Assembly: GCA_023920165.1 (NCBI GenBank)
Contig: CP089276.1
Location: 248,001-312,000, forward strand
Source: Curvularia clavata
Lineage: Eukaryota
DNA length: 64,000 bases
Reading direction: 5' to 3'
The position numbers and the translations under genes are program-made. Below, piece by piece: positions 17,169 through 45,400 of the stretch. Position 1 is the first letter of the stretch, and the number at the start of each line of letters is the position of its first letter. The notes beneath the pieces were generated by a model. It was not told the origin of the DNA and made no database searches. It was given only the letters and a program-made list of their open reading frames with translations.

Positions 17169-18980
17169 ATGCCAGTTCCTCATGAAGAAGTAGAACTCGA
17201 CACCATGGACGACGCTGCAGCTGAGCCACTTATTCCCGCCTCCCGCCAGACCGATGCGCCCGACCGGTACAGCAGCGACGACGACCATGACGACACGGAG
17301 ATCCGAGAAGACGAGGTAGACGAGAGTGCACTTGTGTCGCCAGGCCTATTCATCTGGACTCTGACCATATGCGCTGGCGTCAGCGGCCTCCTGTTCGGCT
17401 ATGAGTACGTTTTCCATTACAAGATATGCAGCAGCGCCTGAACTGACAGCAGTCACTCGCAGCACCGGCGTGATTTCCTCAACACTCGTTTCCATAGGCA
17501 GCGACCTTTCTTCCCGCCCGCTTACCACGCTCGACAAGAGCCTCATCACATCGTGTACCTCGTTCTTTGCGCTGCTTGCCTCGCCGCTCACGGGCGTCCT
17601 GGCGGATACCTACGGTCGCAAGACGGTGATACTAGTCGCAGACGTGCTTTTTATACTCGGTGCGCTATGGCAGGCTTGGACGAGCAGTGTTGGCGGCATG
17701 ATTGCAGGCCGGTCGATTGTCGGTGCCGCAGTTGGTAGCGCATCGTTTGTTGTGCCGCTGTATATTTCGGAACTTAGTCCGAGCCCTTTTCGCGGCAGGC
17801 TGGTGGTGGTGAGTAGTTTGTTTATTACTGGGGGACAGGTTGTGGCGTATGTGGTTGGATGGCTGTTTTCGCAGAGATTGCATGGGTGGCGGTGGATGGT
17901 TGGGCTGGGTGCGTTGCCTGCGGCGGTTCAGTTCGTTATGCTCTTCTTTTTGCCAGAGACACCGCGTTACCTAGTCAAAGCTGGGCGGGTTCAGAAGGCA
18001 AGGTTGGTGCTTAGTAGAGTATACAAGAGCGACGAGGGTGGAGTCAAGTTAGTGGACGCGGTTCTGAGGCGTGTAGAGAGGGAGATTGAAGAGGAAGAGG
18101 ACGCAGCGGGCCTACGAGGCATGCCTGAGACGGGGAAGGTTGGCTGGAGAGCAAAAGTAGACAGGGTGCAAGACAACTTGTCTCAGCTAATCATGATTGG
18201 AGGAAACCGAAGGGCATTGATAATTGCGTGTATGCTTCAAGGTTTCCAGCAGCTCTGCGGCTTTGTGAGTATCCATTCTGCCCTCCCTCCATTCATCGTG
18301 CTAATTACGTTTAACAGAACTCCCTCATGTACTTCTCCGCCACCATCTTCCGCCTCGTAGGCTTCCACTCGCCAACCCTCACCTCTCTCTCTATCGCTTT
18401 GACAAACTTCCTCTTCACCCTCGTTGCCTTCCACTCTATCGACCGCATCGGCCGCCGCCGCATCCTCCTCTACTCCATCCCCATCATGATCACAGGCCTC
18501 ATCACATGCGCCATTGCTTTCCTCTTTGTCGACCTGCCCGCCTCGGAAGAAGCGGTTTCTACATCCGACTCCGATTCAGGAAGCAAGATCTGGCCTCTTA
18601 CCATCCTCGTCTCCATGATCACATACGTAGCCGGCTACGCAATCGGCATGGGCAACGTTCCCTGGCAGCAATCCGAGCTCTTTCCTCTTTCTGTCCGTTC
18701 TCTGGGGTCCGCGCTCTCCACGGCTACAAATTGGGGCTCGAACACGCTTGTTGGTGTGAGTTTCTTACCTATGATGCATCTTTTTAGCCCCGCGGGAACT
18801 TTTGCGCTGTATGCGGTCGTGTGTGCGGTTGCGTGGGGCACGGTGTGGAGAATTTATCCTGAGACGGCGGGGTTGGGGCTTGAGGACGTGGGTGGGTTGT
18901 TGAGGGAGGGGTACGGGGTTAGAGAGAGCGTGAGGGGGTTTGAGGAGAGGAAGAGGAGGGAAGGGGGGGCATTGATGTAG
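17169..18980 (+). CDS. MFS sugar porter, myo-inositol transporter-like; 2 introns (about 17406-17462, 18265-18317); start 17169 or 17205
   Basis: GLLFGY(D)TGVIS, LADTYGRK, VPLYISELSPSPFRGRLV, PETPRYL, QGFQQLCGFNSLMYFSATIF, IDRIGRRRILL, WQQSELFPLSVRSLG, YPETAG. Confidence 0.92.
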
Positions 18981-21845: not shown

Positions 21846-22980
21846 ATGGCAACAATTCAGAAATCTGTAGCCTCAAGTATCAGTTGTGTTCTTCAACAGG
21901 GGCCAGAATGGTCGTGGACAATGCCAAATCACCAATCAGCAGCAGAGGATGTTGATGTTGTCCAAGGCAGGATATTCTGGCTGCCGGCGGAGGAGGACTT
22001 ACCGAAGCGAGCAGTTGAGAGAGTAAATGGCAGAGGTGTTGTGGAAAGCATCTATAGGCATCCAGTTGTTATAGTCTCGCGACCCGCAGAGGACAGCCAG
22101 ACAGCTCACTTCCAGATTGTGAGTTTTTTTATTCTTTCGGTGATTTAGAGATGTCGCTAACATGTCGAAGATCTCCTCGCTGCAGCGCAAAACAATAGGC
22201 GATCTACATAACATCTCGAACGAGCTCCATATTGGCCGGCGCGCTGGGCATATTCCAATAACACCACCACTGGGCCATTCGCATGCATGCTCTAAGACGA
22301 CGAAGAAGCATTTTCCGACTTTGCGTTTAGTGAATGGTGCTCGATTACGGTCAGACTCATACGTAAACATCTGGAACGTTTACAAGATCGACTGGTCGTT
22401 GTTGAAGGTGTATACGAATCCAGAGACCCCGGACGCGGAACAATTTCGATTCGGTCACAAGTCGACGAGGCGGTTACTGGCCAAGAGCGCGATTCTCACC
22501 AAGTACGAGCCCGGTACACAGCTCCGAACACATTCTAGGCAAACTATGGAACACACAGATTCTTGGTCTGATATTGCACATATGATGCCCATGATGCAGA
22601 AATCGATATCAGAGCCAGTCTCGGTATCAACAGATAATGCTCAACCAGCCCGTACTCGAAGGTTCTCGGATTCGGAAACTCGCTCTCTAAGGTCGTGCAG
22701 ATGCTCTGGGACTTGCGATTCTCGAAAGAGCTTTCGATTATCAGACGATGCGAAAAAGTCTAGATATATACCGTCCAAGGCGCCGTCAGATGCAGCAGAT
22801 GGAGCTGTGGCACACAGCCCAGTTACATGGGCCATAAGGCATCCTTTGGATTGTTTGTTCAGGCGTGACGCGGGTGATTGCAGGAGCAGTCTAGTGACAG
22901 GGATTCATCCCAGAAGAGAGAAGAGTCAGCTATGGATGAATGCGAAGGGAGTGATGGCGGTAATCATAGCTTCAATATAA
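21846..22980 (+). CDS. Hypothetical protein (about 360 aa) with N-terminal PemK/MazF-like motif pattern; intron 22119-22170
   Basis: Two ORFs joined in frame by GTGAGT..CTAAC..AAG intron; GRIFWLP..HPVVIVSR..FQIISS..LRSDSYVNIWNVYKIDWSLL; TATA-like TTATAAG near 21779. Confidence 0.75.
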
Positions 22981-25038: not shown

Positions 25039-27104
25039 TAGTTTGGCCCTGGTAGCTATCGCATACGGTTGCAACATGGTGTACTGGAGCCGCCTCCATG
25101 GGTGCACATCACAATTTTATTTTTTTGGAATCAAGCATGTCTCCCATCAAAAGACGCAAAGTCGTCCTGGCTTTCGCTCTGACACTGCAACACGAGTGGG
25201 ATGATCTTGGCAGATCGTTTGGCTTCTTCTAGGCTACAAATTGAACCCGTGATCGTGGAGGAGTAGCGAATCACCGAGTCTTCGAAAGAGCCAACATCAG
25301 ATATCTAAGGTAGATATGCACAAAATGAATAACAATCAGCGGCACTATACGGGGCAGTTGGACATGAAACTGCGCGTTCGTACAGCAAGCTCGCATCTGT
25401 GTCGAGGTTTCTGGATGTGAAGGTTTTGTAATTGGTGGTGACGAGAGGTCAGAGGAAAGAAAAGTCAAGAAATGCGCGCTAAGGCCTCACGGGCCGACAA
25501 TGATCCGCGATCTGCATTCGGCTCCTGGCCTGCTCCGCTATGCCGACCTGATCTGATGGCATTCTGCATCTCGTTTGTTCTGGCGGCCACTTCAGCCACC
25601 GTATGCGGAGCTCTTTTCTTTTTATCCGCGATGTCAGGAACAAAGCCAACGCGCGTGTGGGCTTGCCTTTGATCTCCTGGATAAATGCAGGGGCAGACGG
25701 AGCGATCTGCATTGCTCACTGTGCTGACAAAACGGGCCTGCCTCGCACTCGAGAAGTATGGGGATGAGCGGGTGTTAGAGAAACCGCCAGCAACGGCCCT
25801 GTCGGTCTCTCCTGGACACATGTCACCCGTGAACTGCGACAGTGCGGCGTTTGGGCGTCGACTAGCTGGATACAGTAGTCGTAGGCAAAGTTGCCGGTGC
25901 GAAGGCCTTGATTGCCGTCTAAGCAAGCATCATCTTTCATATGTCCAGCCAATCGTCTACGCGTATAAGCGTAGAAAAGCCCTCACGGCTCGCATCGACG
26001 CACGGTCATACAAAGGGGGCAATATCGGTACCACTGTGCCGTGTTTTCTCCAGGCCAAGACACATAGCAAAGTCAGCCGATGTCAAGACCTGAGTCGCAT
26101 TCTTTGAAGGCGACCCAGACCCAGACAACCGAGACTATGGGGCAGCGGTACTCAGCAGCTGCACAAGACACATGACTTTGTACCCACTTGAGTGGTTTAG
26201 CTCTCTTTCCCCACAATCTGGGCGCAAAAAGCATTACGTGCAGTGATCGCACGCAGGCTGCCGCCCTGGCCCAGGCAATCACCAGAGCGCCGCGGTCGGA
26301 ATAGAGTTTGCGAGGCGTCTGGGGAGGTCCGCGGTGCAAGGCGGGGAACCAGACACAGCAAATTGCTGGACAGCCACGTACTCGCGTGTTACGAGAGATG
26401 GCAAGCCTGACGCTTGTGCCATGCAAATGATACCGTCTTCTCCATGATGGTTGGTGTGAGTGAAAATCCTACTGCCTCCACAGCTACACGTACTTCGTAC
26501 AACTGCCGTCAAGGCCTCGGAGCCCGCAAACGTTTGTGACCCGAGCCGCACCAGGCGTCGGGCAGCCTGACCACCAGCCCGCAGGTGTTCGATAGACCCT
26601 TTGTGGCCGGCCACCGGGTGCCCAATGCAAAAACCAGAAATTCGTTGCGACTCGACCGGGACAAGCGCCGTGACGAAGTGGCGTCACCTCTCCGCACGAT
26701 CCATACTTGCTTCTCCCAATGACGATCGGAGGATTTTGGCACCGGCGCAAGCCCCGTCTAATTCGTGGACAAGCCACGCATTTAGCAACGTAAAACTCCA
26801 CATCGCTCGCATTGACTGAACACTCCGCCTTTCCTGGGGTTGGAAGCCCCTTCACCGCATCGTCCCCCCCGGTCCTGCACGTCGTTTGTCTCCAACGCCC
26901 CTACGCACAACAACTCGCTGCTTCTCCATCACCAACGCCCACCACCAAAATTTCGCTCTCGGCAAACGGGCTGGCGCCAGATAATGCCGTGGCCTGAACG
27001 TTTGATTCCGAGACGTCCGCGACCGCGATAGGACACCGCTCTGCAGCTCGTTATTCTCGCCTCATCGATGGCATCAGCGAATACGTTATAGCCCAGCGCA
27101 CGAC

Positions 27105-29860
27105 ATGACTGTCACGAATTTCGATGGCGACTTTCCCACGCGAGGGCCCGTAGTTCTGGGAGTCTCAGCTGCAACGCTAGCATTGTGCTCTGTGTTCGTG
27201 GGCCTTCGTCTAATCTCTAGGTTTTTGGTGGTCAGGAAGCCAGGATGGGACGACTACACAATGTTCCTCGCATGGACAATTGCCTTTGGCGCCTCCTTCT
27301 CATTATGCTATGGCGCGACAAAGGGCTTGGGACGCAAGCAAGAAAACATACCCCCAGAGTGGCAGGGGGCCATGAAGAAGTCATCCTATGCCTTCTCCGT
27401 ACTATATGTACGTACTCAACTTTGCGCGTAGAGATGGACAGTACTAAGACGCAGCAGAATCCCGCACTTATGACGACCAAGACTTCGATCCTCTTATTCT
27501 ATCTGACGCTGTCCAAAACCCAGAAAGTGTTTCGAGGGGCCACAATCGCGACCCTCGTCGTAGTCAACGTCGGCGGACTGGCACTAACGATTCTCAACAT
27601 CCTCCAATGTCGTCCTATCGGTGCTGCTTTCGCATCCCCAGTTCCTAGTACAGCACACTGCACCAATATCGTCACAATCTACCTCTCATCCGCACCGCTT
27701 AACATCATCACTGATCTGGCCATCCTATTCCTTCCAATGCCTATACTCACAGGCATGCGGTTACCCAAGAAGCAGAAGATTATCTTGGTCATCACGTTCG
27801 GATTTGGCATATTCGTTGCGGTTGTCGACGTCATCCGTATCGCATACTTGCAACAGGCTCAACGAAATACCCTCGAGGCTGCCCAACAGCAGACTACCGA
27901 GTCGGGGAATGACCAGAGGAACACGGGTAATTTTGGATGGTTTTCATCGCTGTCTTTTATGTGGAGCGCTGTCGAAATCAACCTCGGCATAATGTGCGGT
28001 TGTGTCCCTGCCCTGAAGCCGCTCGTCAGGAGATTTCTCCCCAGCTGGGTCATTGACCACACGATTCGCGACACAACAACACAAACGAGCGACGAACCTG
28101 TTCTCCATCCCGACATCCTCGATTCCAGAAGGCGCTCAGACCCGCTGACACCCCCCATTTCCCCGTTCAACAAGCCCCCCACCGCTCGTGGAAGTGCCGG
28201 TGATGACCAGATTGGCATGATGGATTTCCTGACGACTCCCGATATGACTGAGCTACCTCAACTGAGACCGTCGAATACGAACGTAACTTTCCGCAATCAG
28301 CCACAACAAGTAACTTTCTTCGACTTTGTCAACACAGGACAGAAGAAGAATATCACCCTGCGAAGCAACCGAGAGTCTGTCTATCCCGTAATCATGGTGA
28401 CCATACTTTTTGCGGTTTGGGGATTCGCCTATGGATTCCTAGATGTTCTGAATTCGCGGTTCCAAGAAGTTGCTCATACGAGCGACTGGGAAACAGTCGG
28501 CCAACACTCGGCTTATTACGTTGGCTATCTGGTAGGGCCGTTGACGTTCGGACGTCTTGTCTTCAAGACCTGGGGATTCAAGGCTTGTTATATGGTTGGG
28601 CTATCAGTCTATGCTTGTGGTACTCTTGTCTTCTGGCCATCGGCTGTGTTGAATTCTTTCCCCGCATTCTTGATATCCAACTTCATCACAGGTGCAGGAC
28701 TTTCCACCTTGGAACTCAGCGCGAACCCCTTTATCGCCCTGTGTGGCCCACCAGAGTATGCAGAGGCGCGACTGAACTTCTCACAAGGTGTTCAAGCCGT
28801 GAGCAGTATAATCTCTCCTCTTTTGGCGAACAAGGTGCTGTTTCCTGCCAACGCCGCAAGCCTGATCGACGTACAGTGGACATATCTTGGCATCTCGTTT
28901 TTCAATATTGTCCTCGCTATCATCTACTTCTACGTACCGCTCCCAGAGGCCACGGATGACCAGCTCGAAGCTGCCAGCCAGCGTACCCTGCCGCACGCAC
29001 GGGAGGCTACGGTGAACGTTGGACCCAGACGCGTCAGAGTTCTATGGATTAGCTTGGGTATGGCAGTATTTTCACAATTCTGCTATGTTGGTGGCCAAGA
29101 GTCTACGTCAACTTCGTATGGGGATTATCTCGCTCGCGTCACACCTTCGCTCGACGTTGTGTCCCAACGAGCGTACGGCCATACCGCTTTCGCCCTGTCT
29201 CGGTTCCTGGCTGCCCTTATCGATATCTGGGTCAAGCCGCGCTACAGCTTGATGTTTTTCTACATGGGTGCAATCGCCTTTGCTGCTGCAGCAATGCATA
29301 CCTCTGGCTCCACAGGCGCGGCCATCATCGCGTTGGTCATGTTCTTCGAAGGCCCAATATTCCCTCAAATCTTCGCTCAAGGAATCCGCGGCATGGGCAG
29401 GCACACCAAGGACGCTTCCGCACTCTTGACCTCTGCCATTGGTGGCGGCGCCGTCTTCCCGCCCATCATGTTCGCTGTGCTCAAGACCTTCAGCCCGCAA
29501 TACGCTTTCTGCGTCACTATTGCCGCTTATTCAGCCGGAGCCTTGTTCCCGCTCTACCTCAATATCTTCCCTGCAGCCCGCAACCTATCGGACCCTGTGC
29601 GCGACGAGAAGACCAGGCGTGAGTCGGAAGCTGAGGAGAAGGAGCGTCGGGGCTCCAGCCATCTTGAGAAGCTAAAGAGGTGGAGCAAGGGTAAGAAGAG
29701 GGCGAGCATTACGAAAAAGGATCACGAGTTACCATCCATTGAGCACAGAGAGCGGCGGAGTTGGCCAGAGGGCTTGGCACCTAGGAGCAACAGTTTGGCT
29801 ATTGAGCCTGTCAGGACGCCTAGTGCTACCAGTGGTAGTAGTACCTGGAGTGCGACGTGA
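27105..29860 (+). CDS. Fusion protein (about 900 aa): N-terminal PTH11-like fungal rhodopsin (7TM) domain plus C-terminal FucP/glucose-galactose type MFS permease; intron 27408-27457 (NAGNAG acceptor 27454/27457)
   Basis: 7TM motifs VGLRLISR, GWDD, GLGR, KTSILLFY, LQCRPI, NIITDLAILFLPMP, LPKKQK, WSAVEINLGIMCGCVPALKP; FucP motifs LFAVWGFAYGFLDVLN, SAYYVGY, GLSTLELSANPFI, EARLNFSQGVQ, QFCYVGGQE, FEGPIFPQIF, AIGGGAVFPP. Confidence 0.9.
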
Positions 29861-30713
29861 GAGTTGCCCTCACCATTCCTTCTCTTTCCTTTTTTCCCTT
29901 CCATATCCCGCTTTTCCCTTTCCCATATTAGGCATGATACCACGGCTGGATTTTTTTTTCTTTTTTAGCTTGTGTAACTATAGCGATTTTTTGGTTTGTC
30001 ACGAATCTTTTTTTTTTCATTTCTCCCTTTGCAAAGATACCATGGGATGGGCGGCCGGGGTGGGTTTGTTCATAGTTTCCTACATGGGTAAGGTACGGGG
30101 TTCTACAAGCATCGGGGTTGGGTGGACTGTTTCAGTTTTCAAAGTCCTTATTGTAGTTTTCCCTACTGCTTTGTGTACGATATAAGCGAGATGCGTATGG
30201 CTTGGGAAATGGATCATGGGTCGGGAGGCTTCAATGACAAATATTCACGTAGTGTGATGATGTACACTGGTTCCATGTGACGTGTAGAAGGGAAACGAGG
30301 TTCGGAAGCGTGATGCTTGCATTACAGTAAGGCAACGGGATGACGAGGTTACAAGCAAATTGTGCCTCACGAAAGCAGAAAGGAGGGTACGTGAAGCCAA
30401 GAGCACACAAGCATTTATCTCGTTCATTCATTCGTTTATTTGCTGTTTGATTGTTCGTTCCAGGTATAGGAAGGAATAAAACGAGCATGTTGCAATTTCA
30501 AACGAAGACTTTCGTTCGCTGGCTATCATGATTTTGAAGAATTACACAAAAAACGTCAGAGATGCTAAAAGTTCCAGAGAAAGAGGAATAGAAGCAAAAA
30601 CGCCGAGTTCATGCCTGCTACTATAACGAGCATACTTTTCTCCTCGCCATATCTTCACTGGTTGGTCATGCTAAACGCTACAAACACACGCATTATGAAA
30701 TCTAGGACCACCC

Positions 30714-32117
30714 TTACAACGCCAAGACGGCGGCCAGTGCAGCAGCAACGAGGCTGAAGTACGCAGCAGCGCTAGGCTGGAAGCGAGCATGTGCCAGAGA
30801 CGTAGTTCCGCAGCACTCGCGGTTGTACGTAACATTGTTAGCGCGAGCCGCGACCTCGAAAACAGAACCATTAGTCGGGCTGCCCTCGTTATAAAAGTCG
30901 ACGAGGAGGAAGTTTGGCGGGCGGCCCCAGTCACCTGAGTACAGAAAAACCATCATGTTAGTTGGCTGGTTCACTTGACTTGTCTAAAGAATGGATTAGG
31001 AAGACTTACTGGTGCAAGTATTAGCCATCAAGCCCAAACTACCGAATCCCTCGACACCATTCGTCTGCTTGATCTCTGCTACGTTGGGTACCAAGAGGTT
31101 AAGACCAGCAAAGGAAATCTCGGCGTTCAAGTTATGATTTGCCATGTACAAGATTTCTCTCATTTTCTGCTCCGACATGCCTTCAGGTCTGCCGAGGTTG
31201 CAGGGGAAGTTCTGGTCTGTGGGGGAGAACGTGGTCTCCCACATGTTGTAGAACTCCCAGAGCAAGTAAGGTACAGCGTCGGTATCGTAGTTGTAGTCGA
31301 TAAAAGTGATGACGCGCTTGTTCTGCAGGATGAGCTCACCAAGCGTAGGCCAGTCGTTGAGTTCCATGGCAGTCTTGGGCGGCTGGTAGATGAACTTGCG
31401 CAGGCCTGAGGCTTCGATGGGTTTGGCGAAATTTGAGGCTGTGACGAGAGGCTTGCCATCGGACGTTGTCTTGTCCCAGTCTGAGTTTCCGAAGAGAATG
31501 GTGACGACGTCAAAGGGGTGCTCCTCTACCCATTCGGTGACTTGGCGGAGATAGTCCTCGACGGTACCGGCATTGAGTAGGTCACACGAGGTGTGGCAGT
31601 AGTACAAAGTGTCGTTGACATAGTGGGCCGAGCCCTGCAGCATGCGAACACCATCGTCAAGTTGTTGTTTTACCGAGTATTCTTGGTTGCGTGCGATGTT
31701 GTTCTTTCGCGTGTAAGGCGAGTTATGGGCGCAGACTTCGGTGATGTTGGAGTACTTTCGGTTGCAGAACTCGGGGTAGTTGTTACACGGCTGAGTGTTT
31801 GATGGCAAGGCGGGAGCTGTGCCGGTACCCGTTGGTGTCGTGGTCCTGTTTCCATGTCCGATGTTTGTGAGAGGATCTCCGCTGGTTGTCGTGCCATTGG
31901 ATGATAGAGTCCTGCTGGAGCCCGAGATAACAGGTGACGAGGTAATAGTCGCAAACGTGCTGCCGTCAAAGTCGGAGGGCACTGTTGGGTTGGGGGCGAT
32001 GTCGTCGCCTGTGAGACTCCGTTGGGAACCAGAAAGTGTGATGACGGATACGGATGAGCTACTTTGGCCTGCAGCTAGACCCGCAAGCCAGGCCAGCGAG
32101 AGAAGAGCCCCTTTCAT
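30714..32117 (-). CDS. Secreted, probably GPI-anchored PI-PLC X-domain (PLC-like phosphodiesterase) protein; intron about 30937-31009
   Basis: Signal peptide MKGALLSLAWLAGLAAG, S/T-rich stalk, CNNYPEFCNRKYSNIT..AHNS, QLDDGVRMLQ, CHTSCDLL, WPTLGELI, MANHNLN, WGRPPNFLLVDFY, hydrophobic C-terminus. Confidence 0.9.
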
Positions 32118-32909
32118 GATCGCCACAGGGGTAGACGCTGTCCAGGTCTACTTTTCAGTGATACCGTCGAAACCAGGTGAGATGTTATTTGGAGGCTCTG
32201 TTAGAGGCGATATCGATAGCGGTCCAGTTGTAGAGATAGAAGCACAAAGAAGACGGGTTGGCGCGAATGAGTTGTTGCTGCACAGGGCTGTTTCCACGAT
32301 TCCAAGGGCGTGGGCGCAGTCGTCTATATGGTACCAAGCAGCGCCAGGGAAGAAGGAGAAGTCAGGCCGAAGAGCAAACGGACATGCAAGGTGTGGCTAA
32401 CGCTGAGAGAAGAAAGCAAAACAATACGACCGAAGGGGCCCTGAACACAGATGAGGCGACGGATTGTTTTCCAAGCGCGCGAACGGGCCATCGGCAAGAA
32501 CCTGGGTGTGACGTCGTCCTGCAATTCTAGTCGCTTGGGCCCTTCTCTCCCGCCCAACGATCTGCAGGAGCCGCGCAAAGGGTCTACTTAAGACACGTCA
32601 TGTGTAGGCAGCGGCTGAAGCATTGGGGCGTTCTCAAGGCGTCTAGACAGTTCTAATTTGTACGAATATCAACTATTGATATTGAAGCTATTGAAATCGC
32701 CAAGTGCAACCTACCCTTTTCACTTGATACGGCCCCCCATGTCGAGTTATGTCATGCCATGTGGCTGTGCCGTACTCGGGGCAGTGTGGCTGTGGTCAAC
32801 ATCTCCACCTCCACCTCTCAATATGGTGCATACGCGTAATGCACATTATCACTCCACCCCATGCTCATAATATACTTTGAATTCCTCCTTTGGTCCCTCT
32901 CATCCCCTC

Positions 32910-33999: not shown

Positions 34000-35818
34000 C
34001 TACAGCTTGGCATGAACATCAGGCTCTGCGGCACTGGCCTCTTGATTCCTAGTCACGTTGCCTGTGCCAGGACCTTCACCGAAGAAGATAACTTCCACAG
34101 TCAAGTCATCCCTGTATCGTCGAGAGAACGGGCTTGGAAGCGTGAGCAGAGCACTCAGCTGATCTTGATCTTTTCCTCCAAGTGCATTGCGCACCAGGTG
34201 GGTTGCTGCATTCTTATCTTCGACTACGAAGCGCTCGTTGAGACTGGTTTTGGTACCCCACTGCTGCTGGCGGATTGGGGCACGCTGACCGTCTCCCTTA
34301 TCGCCTGCCTTCTGTTCCACAGGCAGCTGTTTTTGTGTAGACCACCAACTCGTTAGCCATGATTGCGTTTGCGAACTTTGACCACCTGAGTTGCTCTGCG
34401 CGTCGAGCCACTGGCCAACAAGTCCAACAACTTCCTCGTTGGTAAGCATTTCCCACAGACCGTCAGTGGCCATGACTACAAAGTCACCCTTTTCGGGCTC
34501 GACCTTGGTTGTGGTGATGACGGGCTCAGCAGTGACGTACGGCGGAGTCTTGAGTAGTGCTGAAGGCGTGCGTGCAAAGTAGGACTTCTTCAACTCGGCG
34601 TTTGTCTCGAGCGACCATTTGTAATAGGCATCACCAAAGGCGCGAGACGGCTCAAGGCCACCCAAAATGCGGCCATTCCGGACTACGTTGGGTTCACCAG
34701 GGTGTTCTCTGCGCAACCGCTCTGCTTCGCTTGTTGTTCCACCAGTCTGATCCTCTGATAGAGGGGTTGCTGTCCATTTGCCATTCTCGCCTCGCCGGCC
34801 AAGAATAGCGCGAGAGTCTCCAGTACAAGCCACTCGGAGGAGCTTTGAGCGGCTGTCATAGAAGGAAAGAAGAGCACATGAGCCAGAGAGTGCAGGTGCA
34901 AGCAGCTCGGCGGCGGCGACCTTAGATTGGGCTTTGCGTACCTTCTTGACAGATTCGTGCACGATTTCGTTGTCCAACTTGGTGAAGCCAGTTTTGATTG
35001 CTTTGTCGATTGCTTCGGGGCTCGGAAAGTGTAACGAAGGGTCCTCAAGGGCGGATTTGTAGGTCGTGTTGAGCTCACGTGCCACATAGGAAATCAATGC
35101 CTGGCGGAGTTTGGCTGAAGTTACCCAACCACTGTACGCCATTAGTACTATACAACTGTCTTGTTTGCTTCCCAACATACCTGTGGCCGTCGAACACGCC
35201 CCAGAACATCCAGTCACTGGCGGATGCGCCATTGTCGGTGGCGGCCAGGTTGGACGGGACTTCGATAATCTTCTCGGCGTGGTCATCCTCAATAGGGTCA
35301 TTGCTGGGTATTTGTACAACGTCGTATCGCACTACGCCCTGACCCCGTCCTACTAGCCACGACTCCTCGTTCTTCCTCAACTTGGCTGTGGCCTGGTCCG
35401 GGTCCATCATCTCGAGGACTTTCCTGCCGTAGTCGTCCGTCTCTTTCGAGATGGGGCCAGTGATAGTACCCGTGTAGAGCTCCCCGGGACCCACGACTAG
35501 CGCCTTCCTTGTAGTCTCATTGTTCGCAGCACTGGTGAGGTTTCTGGCTTGATCGGCGGGGGACTGTGAATGGCCTGTCGACTGGTTGCCGTTGAGGGCA
35601 TAAAAGGCCCCGGAGGCAACGGCGGCAGCCACTAAGGCACCTGTCAGAGCGCGGAATTGCATGGACGAAGTGAGGAGCGGAGCAGAGGGACGCTGTCGGA
35701 AGGTGAAATGAGACCGGTGGGCTAGACCATTGCTTGGCAGGACGCCGACTCGGCTGCGAGCAAGCTTACGCAGGCACGGGCGGCGTGCAGAGCGAAGTGC
35801 TTGGAAGGCAGCCCGCAT
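34000..35818 (-). CDS. PTC5: Mitochondrial PP2C / pyruvate dehydrogenase phosphatase Ptc5; intron about 35133-35180
   Basis: Arg-rich presequence, TM ALTGALVAAAVASGAFYAL, SNDPIEDDH, WGVFDGHSGW, ACTGDSRAILGR, GGLEPSRAFGD, TPPYVTAEP, ATDGLWE, RRYRDDLTVEVIFF; ends AKL. Confidence 0.93.
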
Positions 35819-36035
35819 CTGTAGAGTGAGGGGGATGGTATTGGCAGTGTAAGTGGAGGTGGATAGCGAAAGCAAACCACGGGCAGTGAAATCATGGTGC
35901 AGCGCGGGACGAACGCTTAGTCCAAGCGCTTATCCCGCGTGGGTCCAATCACACCCTATAAAAGGCAATTGACTCTGAAACCACCGTGCCGACGTCATAC
36001 CCTTGCCAGTAACACACAATTTTCCAATCAAGAAA

Positions 36036-42443: not shown

Positions 42444-45400
42444 TTACCCATGATTTCTGAATACAGGATTCACCACATTACCCCCATCTCCGTCTTCAGT
42501 CTTTGTTCGCGCTGATGCCGCCCAGGCCATGTGTCCCTGTGCCGCATTCGCACCAGGCCACCATCCACTCCCGTCATACCCATCCTGTGTGTGGTGTCCA
42601 TCGTGTGCTGCCGGGGGATATCCCACGGCATCTGGAGTTGTGGAATAAGCTTGTCGGGGAGCATAAGGGTGCTCGTGCTGGTTGTTTGGCGCAGAATAGA
42701 CATTTGCTGCCACGCCCGTGTTGAAGCTGTTGACGTGCCTGGAGCGCCAATCCTCATTGATTCTGAATCCATCGCGTCTAAGACGGTCGCTATTGTGAAC
42801 GACGCTTTCGAGACCCATGGGGCTCATCTGTTGGTAATTGTGTTGGTGGATAGGGCCTGGTACACCTGGCATTGCTAGCATGTAAGCGTCAAAACGTGCT
42901 CAAAGTAAGAAATAAGGCGGCTCGCTTACGGTTCCAGAACATGGATTCTGCTGCATCTGTTGTAGGAGATGTTATCGTCATGGGCATGTTGGTTGTCGAT
43001 GGCATGGCCTGTGTGTACTGGTAAGGAAGAGACATGTTATTACTATAGCTCCCTTGAACGCTTTCATGTCGCACACCAGGCGATGTGTGACGTTGGCTGG
43101 AGACCACGCTGGCCGGTCTCGAGTGCGCGGGATGGGTAGCCAGATGCATCATGTTTTGGGGGTTAAACATGGACAAACTTTCTCGTCGTTGAGTATGAAC
43201 AGTCCCAGGTACTACGTGGTTACTGGTACCGGTGGAAGAATTTGGCATTCCCATCAGAGGCTCTGGTGGAGAGTTCATCTGGCCGTGAGGGTTGTTTGGA
43301 TCGTTCTTGGGCAATAATATCGAATTGCTGAGCTCCTCTGGAAACGGCAGACTCCAGGTCTTGGACAGAGAGTGTATGATTCGAAAGCTCCTTGCTGCAA
43401 AGTAATGACATTCGTGTATATCTTCAAGACCTTGGAGTCCCTCGATAAGATTTTGCCGAGACAGTTGATTTTCCTTTGAATAGAGTAGGTGTATTATGCA
43501 AACGGTAAGTAGAACATGTGGTATGACCAGGTGTGCTTGTCGGAAGTTGTAGAATTGCCGGTAGATTCTGACAATTCTTGATACCTGGTTGGCTGCGTCT
43601 ATGCAGATGTCGCGTGGATGTATGTCCGAGTGGATAAGATCGACCTTGAGGAGCGGGCGGAAGAGATGGATGACATTTGTGTAGTAGAACATGCTATAGA
43701 CTAGATCAGTTGCCTGGCAAGCAAAACAGATCAAAGCGAGAAATGAGAGGGAGCACAGAGAGGGGTTATTTGACATACTGTAGTGTAAGGACATGAGGCT
43801 GAGGTTCTTTCTTGGGGTCGATTCCCAACGAGGGTGGCAACTTTCTGTACCAGGCTTGGTATTTGCTGTAGCAGTCAAGTAACTTGCTGCTGGTAAGCCT
43901 TTCTTTTGGCGCAAAGAACATGTGGTTGTTGTCGTTGATAAGCTCTGAAAGGGTTGTGAACTCTTGTAGAAACATGCGAGTGGTTATGATTCCGTGTGGA
44001 GGTCCAGAAAACGTCTCTGGACTGGTGGTAGTTTCGTCAAGGATAGGCTTCTGAAGAGTAATTGCGGCTCGAGGTATCTGACTGATTCGCCCCATGGCGA
44101 TTGTCCAGACACTTTTTTAGTGTTAGCAAAGATTGTCATTGCGAGTATGCGTAGCCGGATACTTACTTTTCTACTGTAAAGCAGCCCCAGAAAGTGACTT
44201 TCCGGACCTCGACTTCGCTTGGTGTCAAACCAAGAGTAGCACTAGTACCGTAGTCCAAGTGCAGGCCCATTTCGACACACATACGCATGCATCGTCCAAT
44301 GTAGGCAAAACCGCTGCTGTCTCTGCCTGTGCTCGGCTCGCGAAGTGACATGACACAGAGAGCCTGGACGGTTGTAAGACACGGGGTTTCATCCTCGAAT
44401 AGCAACCGCCTGGCTTCAGCGAAGAAATGATCGCCTGCTGTGCGGAAGTCGGACGGGTCAGTACGACCTGCAGGATCGTCGGTCAAATGGCAAGCGTAGG
44501 CGCATATGGCGTTGACGAGCAGAGAGCAGCAGTATTTGTCGCGGCCAGCTCTGAAATCCTTGTAGAAACATTCTCGGCTGAAGAGAACGTAGAAAGGGTG
44601 GCTCCATGTAAAGTAGAGGTTGAGCAAGCTCTCGACAAAGGTGAGATCATCCGTCACGTTTGTCCACGTGGAACCCTGACGCTGCGGCTGCACACTGCTC
44701 ATACGCATGCGGGCACCGCCAAAATTTTCTTCTTCTGGGACAAGACTCAGGCTGGCCGAGTGTCCAAAGTGTCTGCTTTGACCGGTGAGGGTCACGGCTG
44801 GCTTACCGAGCAGCACACTTAGATCAGACTCGAGGCTTTGGCCGTCGATGGGCGTACTGGGCGTCAGAGTTACATTCTTGCGCCATGTTTCGGCCAAGGT
44901 GGCGGTATCGAAGTCAGGATTGCTTCGAATGTGCTGGATAAGCTCGCTGACGTGCTCGTCTGGTAGTCTTTTGAGTGAGTTGATGATGAAATCGGCATTG
45001 GGAGCTGGATCTGAGGTGAGGGTGGCGACTGATGAGGCATCGCGCTTTATGCCTGCGTTGTTTGTTGTTGCGTGTCCCTTGTTGCGTCGACTCTCGCTCT
45101 CAGCATCGTAATGGCACTCAGTCTTGTAGACGGCAGTGCAGGTTGCGCAGACGGGAGTACCGCCATCGCACTGTAGGCAAAGACATTAGCAAGGGAGGTG
45201 AATTCCATGGGGAGGGGTTTGGGAAAGGGCGGGCTCTGGCAGGTTGGCAGGCTGACAGACAGACAGGCAGACTGACAGATTGACAGACACACCACCAAGC
45301 AAAAATTGGGGAGTGGTACCAGGCGAGGAGCAGTCCGCGGAGGCGAATCTCACACACAATGGCATGCCCCCTGGTTGTTACAAAGGTCGTGCGCCTGTCG

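Follow-up and report, generated by a model that had tools for sequence, protein, structure and literature searches.

We analyzed a gene of the fungus Curvularia clavata on contig CP089276.1, within a stretch of 64,000 nucleotides (nt) that spans contig positions 248,001 to 312,000 (hereafter, the window; all coordinates below count from its first letter). The gene occupies 27105 to 29860 on the plus strand and encodes a seven-transmembrane-helix (7TM) domain of the PTH11-like type, joined through a linker to a complete sugar permease of the major facilitator superfamily (MFS). It is a single gene with a single polypeptide product, an expressed and anciently conserved 7TM-permease fusion. We favor reading the protein as a sugar:H+ symporter with a built-in, cis-acting 7TM module that serves regulation or sensing, and we put the probability of that whole statement at roughly 0.55. 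The fusion is catalogued in databases and, as far as our searches reach, has apparently never been studied.

One spliced gene encodes both domains

The protein of 901 amino acids (aa) is encoded by two exons, 27105-27407 (101 aa) and 27458-29857 (800 aa), followed by the stop codon. Joined, their translation is identical throughout to the 901-aa database protein P0003; the source name of that entry is 'uncharacterized protein yc1106_03813 [Curvularia clavata]'. Exon 1 opens with an ATG at 27105, the first in-frame ATG past a stop at 27003-27005, and runs to a GTACGT donor at 27408. The intron carries a TACTAAG branch-like site and closes with a CAG acceptor that ends at 27457. The exon-wise Pfam matches fit this intron position, with residues 34-101 of exon 1 matching positions 1-66 of the Fung_rhodopsin profile. 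An earlier reading of the window, made from the letters alone (the sequence-only reading), had described an open reading frame (ORF) at 27458-29860 that crosses both domains free of stops. Besides the identity with P0003, a stop-free frame at 27221-29860 on the same strand, which encloses that ORF, bears the claim out.

We aligned RNA contigs from public runs to positions 26700-30400 of the window. Runs X1 and X5, which come from two separate studies, each gave the gene as a single spliced contig, of 3140 nt (26836-30026) and 3373 nt (26805-30228), respectively, with only the 50-nt intron removed. Run X9 showed the same splice, and another of its contigs (27665-28439) spans the linker. Because exactly the GT..AG intron is removed, the contigs of X1, X5, and X9 are RNA-derived, and they bridge the linker between the 7TM and MFS domains. 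The sequence-only reading had proposed looking for transcripts that break within the linker. No break was seen, and the contigs of the two studies cross it on their way from the 5' to the 3' untranslated region (UTR). No loose ends or start pile-ups were listed at the locus among the RNA contigs of 26700-30400. Metatranscriptome run X15 held only pieces of 151-316 nt, none of them bridging the linker, and the parts they leave uncovered carry no conclusion. The UTR limits given in Table 1 are contig ends rather than mapped transcript ends.

One further observation concerns run X9. Over 28783-29310, this run contains two contigs for the same stretch, one of which differs at 52 of 528 nt, chiefly in third codon positions. 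The run seems to include another, related strain or species in which this gene is present and under purifying selection.

A PTH11-like domain, a linker with two motifs, and an FHS-type permease

The N-terminal part of P0003 matches the Pfam family Fung_rhodopsin (PF20684) at 202.8 bits, against a cut-off of 27, along the whole profile (positions 1-237 of 237; residues 34-293). No match to CFEM was found in P0003 with Pfam, and PF05730, the CFEM family, was absent from the precomputed Pfam lists of 360 listed relatives. Only about 15 residues stand ahead of the first transmembrane segment (TM1), where PTH11 proper is defined by an N-terminal extracellular CFEM domain. The PTH11-like 7TM domain lacking CFEM that the sequence-only reading had described is therefore the domain found here. 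A search of the ESM Atlas with residues 1-300, leaving out PF20684 clusters, returned no usable match and no structure model. Comparison of TM1-3 with TM5-7 by hhalign gave a probability of 0.4% for an internal repeat; the positive control, the N-terminal against the C-terminal half of the MFS domain, also failed (0.7%). We considered a retinal-binding 'modular rhodopsin' and rejected it: the preprints under that wording, in their accessible text, concern true microbial rhodopsins and mention no MFS domain.

Hydropathy of the single sequence missed helices, so we used an alignment-averaged profile instead, which by this crude method resolves 7 plus 12 hydrophobic blocks, the 12 falling between residues 407 and 806. 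In the same crude profile, the short 7TM loops rich in Lys and Arg lie on the side of the segment after TM7 and of the linker. Cys152 is invariant and Cys169 nearly so, and this pair falls in the loop predicted to connect TM4 and TM5 on the outside, opposite the Lys/Arg-rich loops. Because these loops lie on the linker side and the Cys pair on the other, we infer that the 7TM N terminus is probably outside and its C terminus inside, leading to a cytosolic MFS N terminus and a predicted total of about 19 transmembrane segments. The topological compatibility of the two domains, an argument of the sequence-only reading, holds in this prediction.

The C-terminal domain matches MFS_1 (PF07690) at 43.7 bits against a Pfam cut-off of 33.4 (residues 450-768). 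A phmmer search of PDB sequences found only FucP entries (3o7q and 3o7p); Escherichia coli FucP (3o7q) matched with E=6.9e-31, query positions 10-379 aligning to chain residues 21-403. The best NCBIfam matches were fucP, PRK10133, gluP, and NagP, all under their cut-offs. By these matches, the protein belongs to the fucose:H+ symporter (FHS) family (TC 2.A.1.7) and is no fucP equivalog. With its 12 segments and its FucP homology, the domain is the complete FucP-type permease that had been claimed from the letters. Alignment with 3o7q also confirms the guess that the LDVLN and LELSANP stretches hold the counterparts of FucP Asp46 and Glu135, which it places at Asp430 and Glu520. These two residues have a reported functional role in FucP.

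The acid pair is kept in close relatives, and its Asp is replaced in other clades of the fused family. Asp430 is matched by Asp in 114 of 118 matched proteins of the Pleosporales set, and Glu520 by Glu in 92 of 97 aligned fused proteins. At the Asp46 position, Asp stands in 6/6 Dothideomycetes, in 6/7 Eurotiomycetes (core group), in Rhizina, and in all 10 matched unfused paralogs outside the fused clade. Asn takes its place in 9/9 matched Leotio- and Sordariomycetes, including Neurospora and Fusarium, and in 88 of 91 matched proteins of a larger Sordariomycete set; Gly is found in 2/2 Tremellomycetes and Ser in 5/5 Orbiliomycetes. Microsporum combines Asn at this position with Gln at the Glu135 position. 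The pattern agrees with a change of function linked to the fused clade, and the replacements suggest altered coupling, or a drift towards sensing, in the clades that carry them.

Characterized relatives bear on the substrate. As described in the portions available of the respective reports, Aspergillus niger RhtA, which was assayed in yeast, is an FHS-family L-rhamnose transporter, and Neurospora crassa sut-28 is required for L-rhamnose uptake. The fungal FHS members with a characterized function in the literature covered, again in its available parts, are L-rhamnose transporters only (RhtA and SUT-28). Because the acid pair is intact and these fungal relatives transport L-rhamnose, our best guess is a proton-coupled carrier: the MFS domain most likely imports a hexose or 6-deoxyhexose (e.g., L-rhamnose, L-fucose, or galactose) together with protons.

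Between the domains lies a linker of about 112 aa, rich in Thr, Pro, Asp, and Ser and variable outside two motifs. The first, DFLTTP, has conserved columns across 97 aligned fused proteins (D in 76, F in 83, L in 82, T in 82, and P in 87), and its pattern [DE]F[LI][TS]xP matches 213 of 317 long fused proteins and none of 15 named unfused relatives. The residues of the second, FFDFV, are each kept in 81-91 of the 97; its pattern occurs in 259 of the 317 and again in none of the 15, and we saw it in Tremellomycete, Sordariomycete, Eurotiomycete, and Lecanoromycete members. Both linker motifs are fusion-specific. Beyond the permease, the tail is basic and Ser-rich (residues 826-901 contain 13 S, 9 R, 8 K, and 9 E in 76). 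A stretch S-D-P-x-R-D-E stands just past TM12, and L-P-S-x-E-H-R-E-R-x-S-W-P-E-G is kept in Pleosporales only. Linker length and tail composition agree with the roughly 110-aa linker and basic, Ser-rich tail noted in the sequence-only reading.

We compared constraint among the parts of the protein. Identity to the query, given first for close and then for distant relatives, was highest in the 7TM domain (0.78, 0.47), followed by the MFS domain (0.74, 0.41), the linker (0.58, 0.22), and the tail (0.46, 0.11). Among nine metagenome orthologs, the proportion of nonsynonymous differences (pN) was 0.064-0.118 in the 7TM domain versus 0.100-0.149 in the MFS domain and was lower in the 7TM domain in 9/9; synonymous sites were saturated (proportion pS 0.71-0.93), so pN alone is comparable between domains. 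Judged by these measures, the 7TM part is no decaying appendage, and the constraint on it is at least as strong as that on the transporter, which answers the earlier doubt whether it is conserved at all. Within the 7TM domain, identity was 0.75 in helices, 0.70 in predicted cytosolic loops, and 0.47 in predicted outer loops; the contrast of helices and cytosolic loops with outer loops gave a Mann-Whitney p of 2e-5, over positions that are not independent. Conserved polar or charged residues within the helices are K109, N138, D187, D225, R228, and E274.

Table 1. Positions in the window of the fusion gene's transcript features, protein domains, and motifs
Feature	Position	Strand	Remarks
5' UTR, about 270-300 nt	26805..27104	+	Contigs begin at 26805 (run X5) and 26836 (run X1), unbroken into the coding sequence
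Upstream ORF 1 in 5' UTR, 15 codons	26984..27031	+	Out of frame with the main ORF
Upstream ORF 2 in 5' UTR, 7 codons	27068..27091	+	
Exon 1	27105..27407	+	Met1-Tyr101; short outer N terminus, TM1, TM2, start of TM3 (topology predicted)
Fung_rhodopsin (PF20684, PTH11-like) 7TM domain, residues 34-293	27204..28033	+	Interrupted by the intron; Pfam
Intron, 50 nt, GT..AG	27408..27457	+	Spliced out in RNA contigs of runs X1, X5, and X9
Exon 2	27458..29860	+	Asn102-Thr901 and stop; rest of 7TM, linker, MFS, and tail in one frame
Linker, about 112 aa, residues 294-405	28034..28369	+	Predicted cytosolic; T/P/D/S-rich, variable outside the two motifs
Linker motif 1, D357-F-L-T-T-P362	28223..28240	+	Conserved columns in fused proteins
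Linker motif 2, F388-F-D-F-V392	28316..28330	+	About 15 residues ahead of the first MFS helix
MFS domain, FHS type, residues 406-806	28370..29572	+	12 hydrophobic segments
Asp430 codon, equivalent of FucP Asp46 (FLDVLN)	28442..28444	+	FucP alignment
Glu520 codon, equivalent of FucP Glu135 (LELSANP)	28712..28714	+	FucP alignment
C-terminal tail, residues 807-901	29573..29857	+	Predicted cytosolic; basic, Ser-rich
3' UTR	29861..30228	+	Contig ends at 30026 (run X1) and 30228 (run X5)

Distribution and history of the fusion

Searches with the fusion protein and its relatives show that the architecture is widespread. With exon 2 as the query, all 120 matches listed (61-100% identity, Pleosporales by name) carry both PF20684 and PF07690, and an ortholog is also present in Parastagonospora. 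Among the best 150 representatives of 50%-identity clusters, 88 have both domains, 14 the 7TM domain only, and 48 the MFS domain only; many of the single-domain representatives are ORF fragments of short contigs. All 120 Sordariomycete matches listed carry PF20684, 101 of them with PF07690 as well, and an unfused Orbiliomycete query still drew 93 fused proteins among the 120 matches listed. Fused members thus occur in six classes of Pezizomycotina and in two Tremellomycetes. Named examples outside the Dothideomycetes are Microsporum, Penicillium, Talaromyces, Aspergillus, Paecilomyces, and Thermoascus (Eurotiomycetes); Psora, Alectoria, and Thelocarpon (Lecanoromycetes); Pseudogymnoascus, Tricladium, Cadophora, and Hyphodiscus (Leotiomycetes); Neurospora, Podospora, Fusarium, Colletotrichum, Diaporthe, and Hypoxylon (Sordariomycetes); and Rhizina, Pyronema, and Sphaerosporella (Pezizomycetes). 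A single BLAST alignment covers the 7TM and the MFS domain in each comparison with proteins of Alectoria, Aspergillus, Rhizina, Neurospora, and Kwoniella.

The survey of relatives that the sequence-only reading had called for thus finds the fusion present across many classes. Its expectation that homologs sit under generic transporter names came true as well: fused relatives appear in databases as 'MFS monosaccharide transporter-like', 'L-fucose permease', and 'Rhodopsin domain-containing protein', and ESM Atlas clusters bear an automatic name that combines both domains.

Metagenome loci support the same gene structure. Both domains were present at 56 of 63 loci, and in 56/56 they lie in one stop-free frame. 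At the 55 loci with equivalents of both exons, 30 have a GT..AG intron (44-83 nt) at the same codon boundary, 21 have the whole gene with no intron, and 4 are irregular. The database entries P0086, P0257, and P0233 are relatives with extra N-terminal domains (glutaredoxin, Rpp20/Alba, and a partial amino-acid transporter). They appear to be merged gene models, or ORF calls that read through, and not further fusions.

To place the fused forms, we took the MFS domain of 51 named genome proteins and built a careful maximum-likelihood tree. On it, every fused form groups with the unfused Orbiliomycete proteins in one clade (support 100/99). Outside it stand unfused paralogs of 467-502 aa from the same classes, and also Mycena. 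The label 'fused' changes once on the best tree, although support is weak (45/5; 43% of bootstrap trees) for the branch between fused and Orbiliomycete forms. A 'partial' record from Trichophaea, which starts inside the end of TM7, was scored as fused. An earlier quick tree that included unnamed metagenome ORFs had needed 14 label changes; its rows lacking a 7TM domain were mostly ORF calls cut off on short contigs. The groups of the MFS tree reappear in the 7TM tree, down to one Penicillium protein that falls, oddly, with the Leotio- and Sordariomycete group. Pairwise identities of the two domains are correlated (r=0.81, exceeded in 0 of 999 permutations). The simplest reading is that an unfused FHS gene was duplicated, that a single fusion then arose early in Pezizomycotina, and that the two domains have since been passed on together by vertical descent.

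Two groups within the clade deserve separate mention. The Tremellomycete (Basidiomycota) proteins P0141 of a Kwoniella sp. (1018 aa) and P0153 of Cryptotrichosporon argae (1096 aa) each have a full Fung_rhodopsin domain, at 183.5 and 168.9 bits, respectively, fused to MFS. According to the available part of a survey of 1357 genomes, Pth11-like proteins are exclusive to Pezizomycotina. In the MFS tree, the Tremellomycete pair nests inside the Pezizomycotina fused clade. Forcing it outside cost 25.6 log-likelihood units (approximately unbiased test, p-AU 0.016), for a group that was chosen after the tree had been seen and that has long branches. We regard the Tremellomycete fusion as a candidate for horizontal transfer.

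The second group comprises six unfused Orbiliomycete gene models that fall inside the fused clade (P0216 and P0417-P0421; 499-519 aa). They have an N-N-F-V-Q-L stretch at the place of the F-F-D-F-V motif. Either secondary loss of the 7TM domain or a split gene would account for these forms.

Candidate function, rival readings, and neighborhood

The favored reading can be stated as a mechanism. The linker of about 110 aa would tether the PTH11-type 7TM domain permanently to the FHS transporter. The 7TM domain would bind something within its helix bundle or within the membrane and act through its cytosolic face and the linker. It might thereby tune transport or trafficking, report the state of the transporter to cytosolic signaling partners, or do both, as a transceptor-like hybrid. 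A hard-wired transceptor, the mechanism put forward in the sequence-only reading, is an inference from the architecture. We favor a cis-acting module because conservation of the helices and cytosolic loops points to a sequence-specific role of the 7TM domain, beside a linker with fusion-specific motifs.

Several points weigh against this reading. The genes around the fusion include no sugar-catabolic cluster and offer no functional hint. The equivalog cut-offs were missed by a wide score gap (fucP TIGR00885, 151.3 versus 280.4 bits; PRK10133, 118.5 versus 427 bits), so the substrate cannot be read off FucP and the name 'L-fucose permease' is unwarranted. Judged by the replacement of the Asp46 equivalent in other fused clades, the family is not uniformly one of proton symporters. 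A 7TM-only profile found 0 matches among PDB sequences at E<=10. Covariation between the domains (mutual information with average product correction; 308 sequences, only 88 effective) placed inter-domain pairs among the top scores merely in proportion to their number, and with that effective number the top score equaled that of a within-clade shuffle and the tenth lay slightly above it. Short-read contigs are blind to transcript starts, which leaves room for a minor internal transcript or later cleavage. Finally, a 2026 review of G-protein-coupled receptors (GPCRs), in the text available, rests the GPCR status of PTH11-like proteins on few members and describes their ligands as undefined.

Accessory subunits serve some transporters, and the 7TM domain could be such a structural accessory to a plain transporter, acting as a chaperone, membrane-targeting device, or oligomerization scaffold with no part in sensing or signaling. 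The retained acid pair of the MFS domain would suit this role, as would the lack of an extracellular domain and the fact that helices, the expected packing surface, are the most conserved parts of the 7TM domain. The 467-502-aa paralogs in the same fungi, moreover, imply that the transporter fold needs no 7TM domain. However, the cytosolic loops are strongly conserved too, the conserved polar and charged helix residues exceed the usual need of a passive scaffold, and the two cytosolic motifs peculiar to fused forms suggest that something specific is bound there. The Asp46 equivalent is also lost only within the fused clade (including its unfused Orbiliomycete branch) and in 0 of 10 matched outside paralogs, which hints at a functional change tied to the clade. 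We consider a purely structural accessory possible but on the unlikely side. Another alternative takes the MFS domain for a receptor that no longer transports and that works with the 7TM domain purely in signaling, as a sugar sensor in the manner of yeast Snf3 and Rgt2. The neutralized Asp46 equivalent in several fused clades, the double replacement in Microsporum, and a long cytosolic tail that is conserved in order all point that way. Yet the query and nearly all of its matched Pleosporales relatives keep the Asp, the Glu520 equivalent is kept almost throughout, and purifying selection acts over the full length of the MFS domain. The characterized fungal relatives, in the reports as available, are true transporters. 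For this protein, a sensor of that kind is distinctly improbable.

Two further explanations question the fusion itself. The locus could yield two proteins, through an internal promoter, initiation at Met355, Met356, or Met364, or proteolysis of the linker. These in-frame Met codons do lie near the point where unfused relatives start, and contigs from short reads would miss a second transcript start. On the other hand, X1 and X5 each hold the whole gene in a single spliced contig, the sole other piece being 171 nt in the 3' UTR in X1, and neither loose ends nor start pile-ups were listed. Positions 355 and 356 are Met in just 60 and 63 of 97 fused proteins and otherwise Ile, Val, Leu, or Phe, so that what is conserved there is a hydrophobic residue and not a start codon. 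At every one of the 56 loci the frame is open across the linker, and it has been kept so over hundreds of millions of years; separate products would not need this. We judge two products very unlikely. The remaining possibility, an assembly error, read-through annotation, or chance open frame, draws no support from this locus, although some database relatives do show merged models (those with a glutaredoxin or Rpp20 N terminus). The same architecture recurs in independent genomes, metagenome contigs, and RNA assemblies, and the chance of an artifact is negligible.

A bolder extension of the favored reading treats the fusion as a 'Rosetta stone' for the most populous orphan class of fungal 7TM proteins: PTH11-like domains in general would be partner or regulatory subunits of MFS sugar carriers. 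Here, the 7TM domain would read or gate the FHS transport cycle and relay it through its cytosolic loops and the linker motifs to G-protein/cyclic AMP signaling, and the clades in which Asp46 is replaced (Asn in Leotio- and Sordariomycetes, Gly in Tremellomycetes) would have moved towards pure sensing. We think this improbable as a whole. Having stayed in one chain with a sugar permease across six classes of Pezizomycotina, the PTH11-like domain of the fusion gives this orphan family a definite molecular partner and links it to one kind of small molecule, sugars; it also yields a testable prediction for unfused PTH11-like members.

We found no description of a 7TM-FHS permease architecture in full-text literature searches on the architecture and on the family, in agreement with the earlier statement that no functional description is known. 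By term searches, the searchable main text of the 2026 GPCR review, the 1357-genome survey, an N. crassa survey, and a Fusarium GPCR paper do not mention such a fusion; the N. crassa GPCR survey, as searched by term in its available text, has zero occurrences of MFS, fucose, and permease. In the parts of the literature available, PTH11-like proteins make up the largest group of predicted receptors in filamentous ascomycetes, and several are important in infection, with ligands and mechanism undefined. With these 'class XIV GPCRs' (PF20684), the fusion protein shares the full-length profile match, seven hydrophobic segments, and the conserved Cys pair of the predicted outer loop. It differs in having no CFEM domain and almost no extracellular N terminus, and the usual long cytosolic tail is replaced by the linker and a complete MFS transporter. 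The likeness to the FHS family consists in homology to FucP over about 380 residues and the retained equivalents of Asp46 and Glu135; the N-terminal 7TM domain and linker and the scores below the fucP equivalog cut-offs set it apart. Unfused fungal 'L-fucose-proton symporter' paralogs are 33-40% identical to the fusion protein.

The clearest precedent for a 7TM domain as a transporter module, and by analogy the nearest functional counterpart, is the human lysosomal cholesterol sensor LYCHOS (GPR155). In the available portion of the published account, LYCHOS holds a PIN-like transporter and a GPCR domain in one chain, packed together and coordinating in sensing. A transporter domain and a 7TM GPCR-like domain in one chain are common to both proteins; the packing is solved for LYCHOS, whereas here the single chain is known from sequence. 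LYCHOS pairs a PIN-like transporter with a class B2-like GPCR, the fusion protein an MFS transporter with Fung_rhodopsin; with no kinship between these families, LYCHOS is an analog and not a homolog. If our reading is right, the fusion would be a second independent case, after LYCHOS, of a 7TM receptor-like domain serving as a transporter module.

Fungal sugar transceptors, among which yeast Snf3/Rgt2 can be counted, offer a second comparison. N. crassa CDT-1/CDT-2, HGT-1/2, and RCO-3 are, in the available text, MFS sugar carriers proposed both to sense and to transport. Unlike the fusion protein, they belong to the sugar-porter family and not to FHS, and they have no 7TM domain; their link to 7TM receptors and G proteins is between separate proteins and speculative. 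A 2026 N. crassa paper, in the part available, speculates that G-alpha proteins regulate sugar transceptors and reports PTH11-class mutants with cellulose phenotypes. A natural fusion of both kinds of protein bears on that question.

The neighboring genes encode an ataxin-2-like protein, a sugar-porter transporter, an alpha/beta hydrolase, a prenyltransferase alpha subunit, a PP2C, Tcf25, and a RhoGAP. CreA-type SYGGRG sites are not enriched upstream of the fusion gene (7 in 1 kb, versus 4.5 per kb in the whole window). The long ORFs at 30999-32147 (-), 22144-22977 (+), 35078-35929 (-), and 42892-43983 (-) had no Pfam match at E<=0.001; the one at 30999-32147, of 383 aa, lies directly downstream of the fusion gene on the opposite strand. 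About 8 kb upstream, the sugar-porter (PF00083) gene extends over 17365-18977 (+) in two ORF pieces and is an ordinary second sugar carrier.

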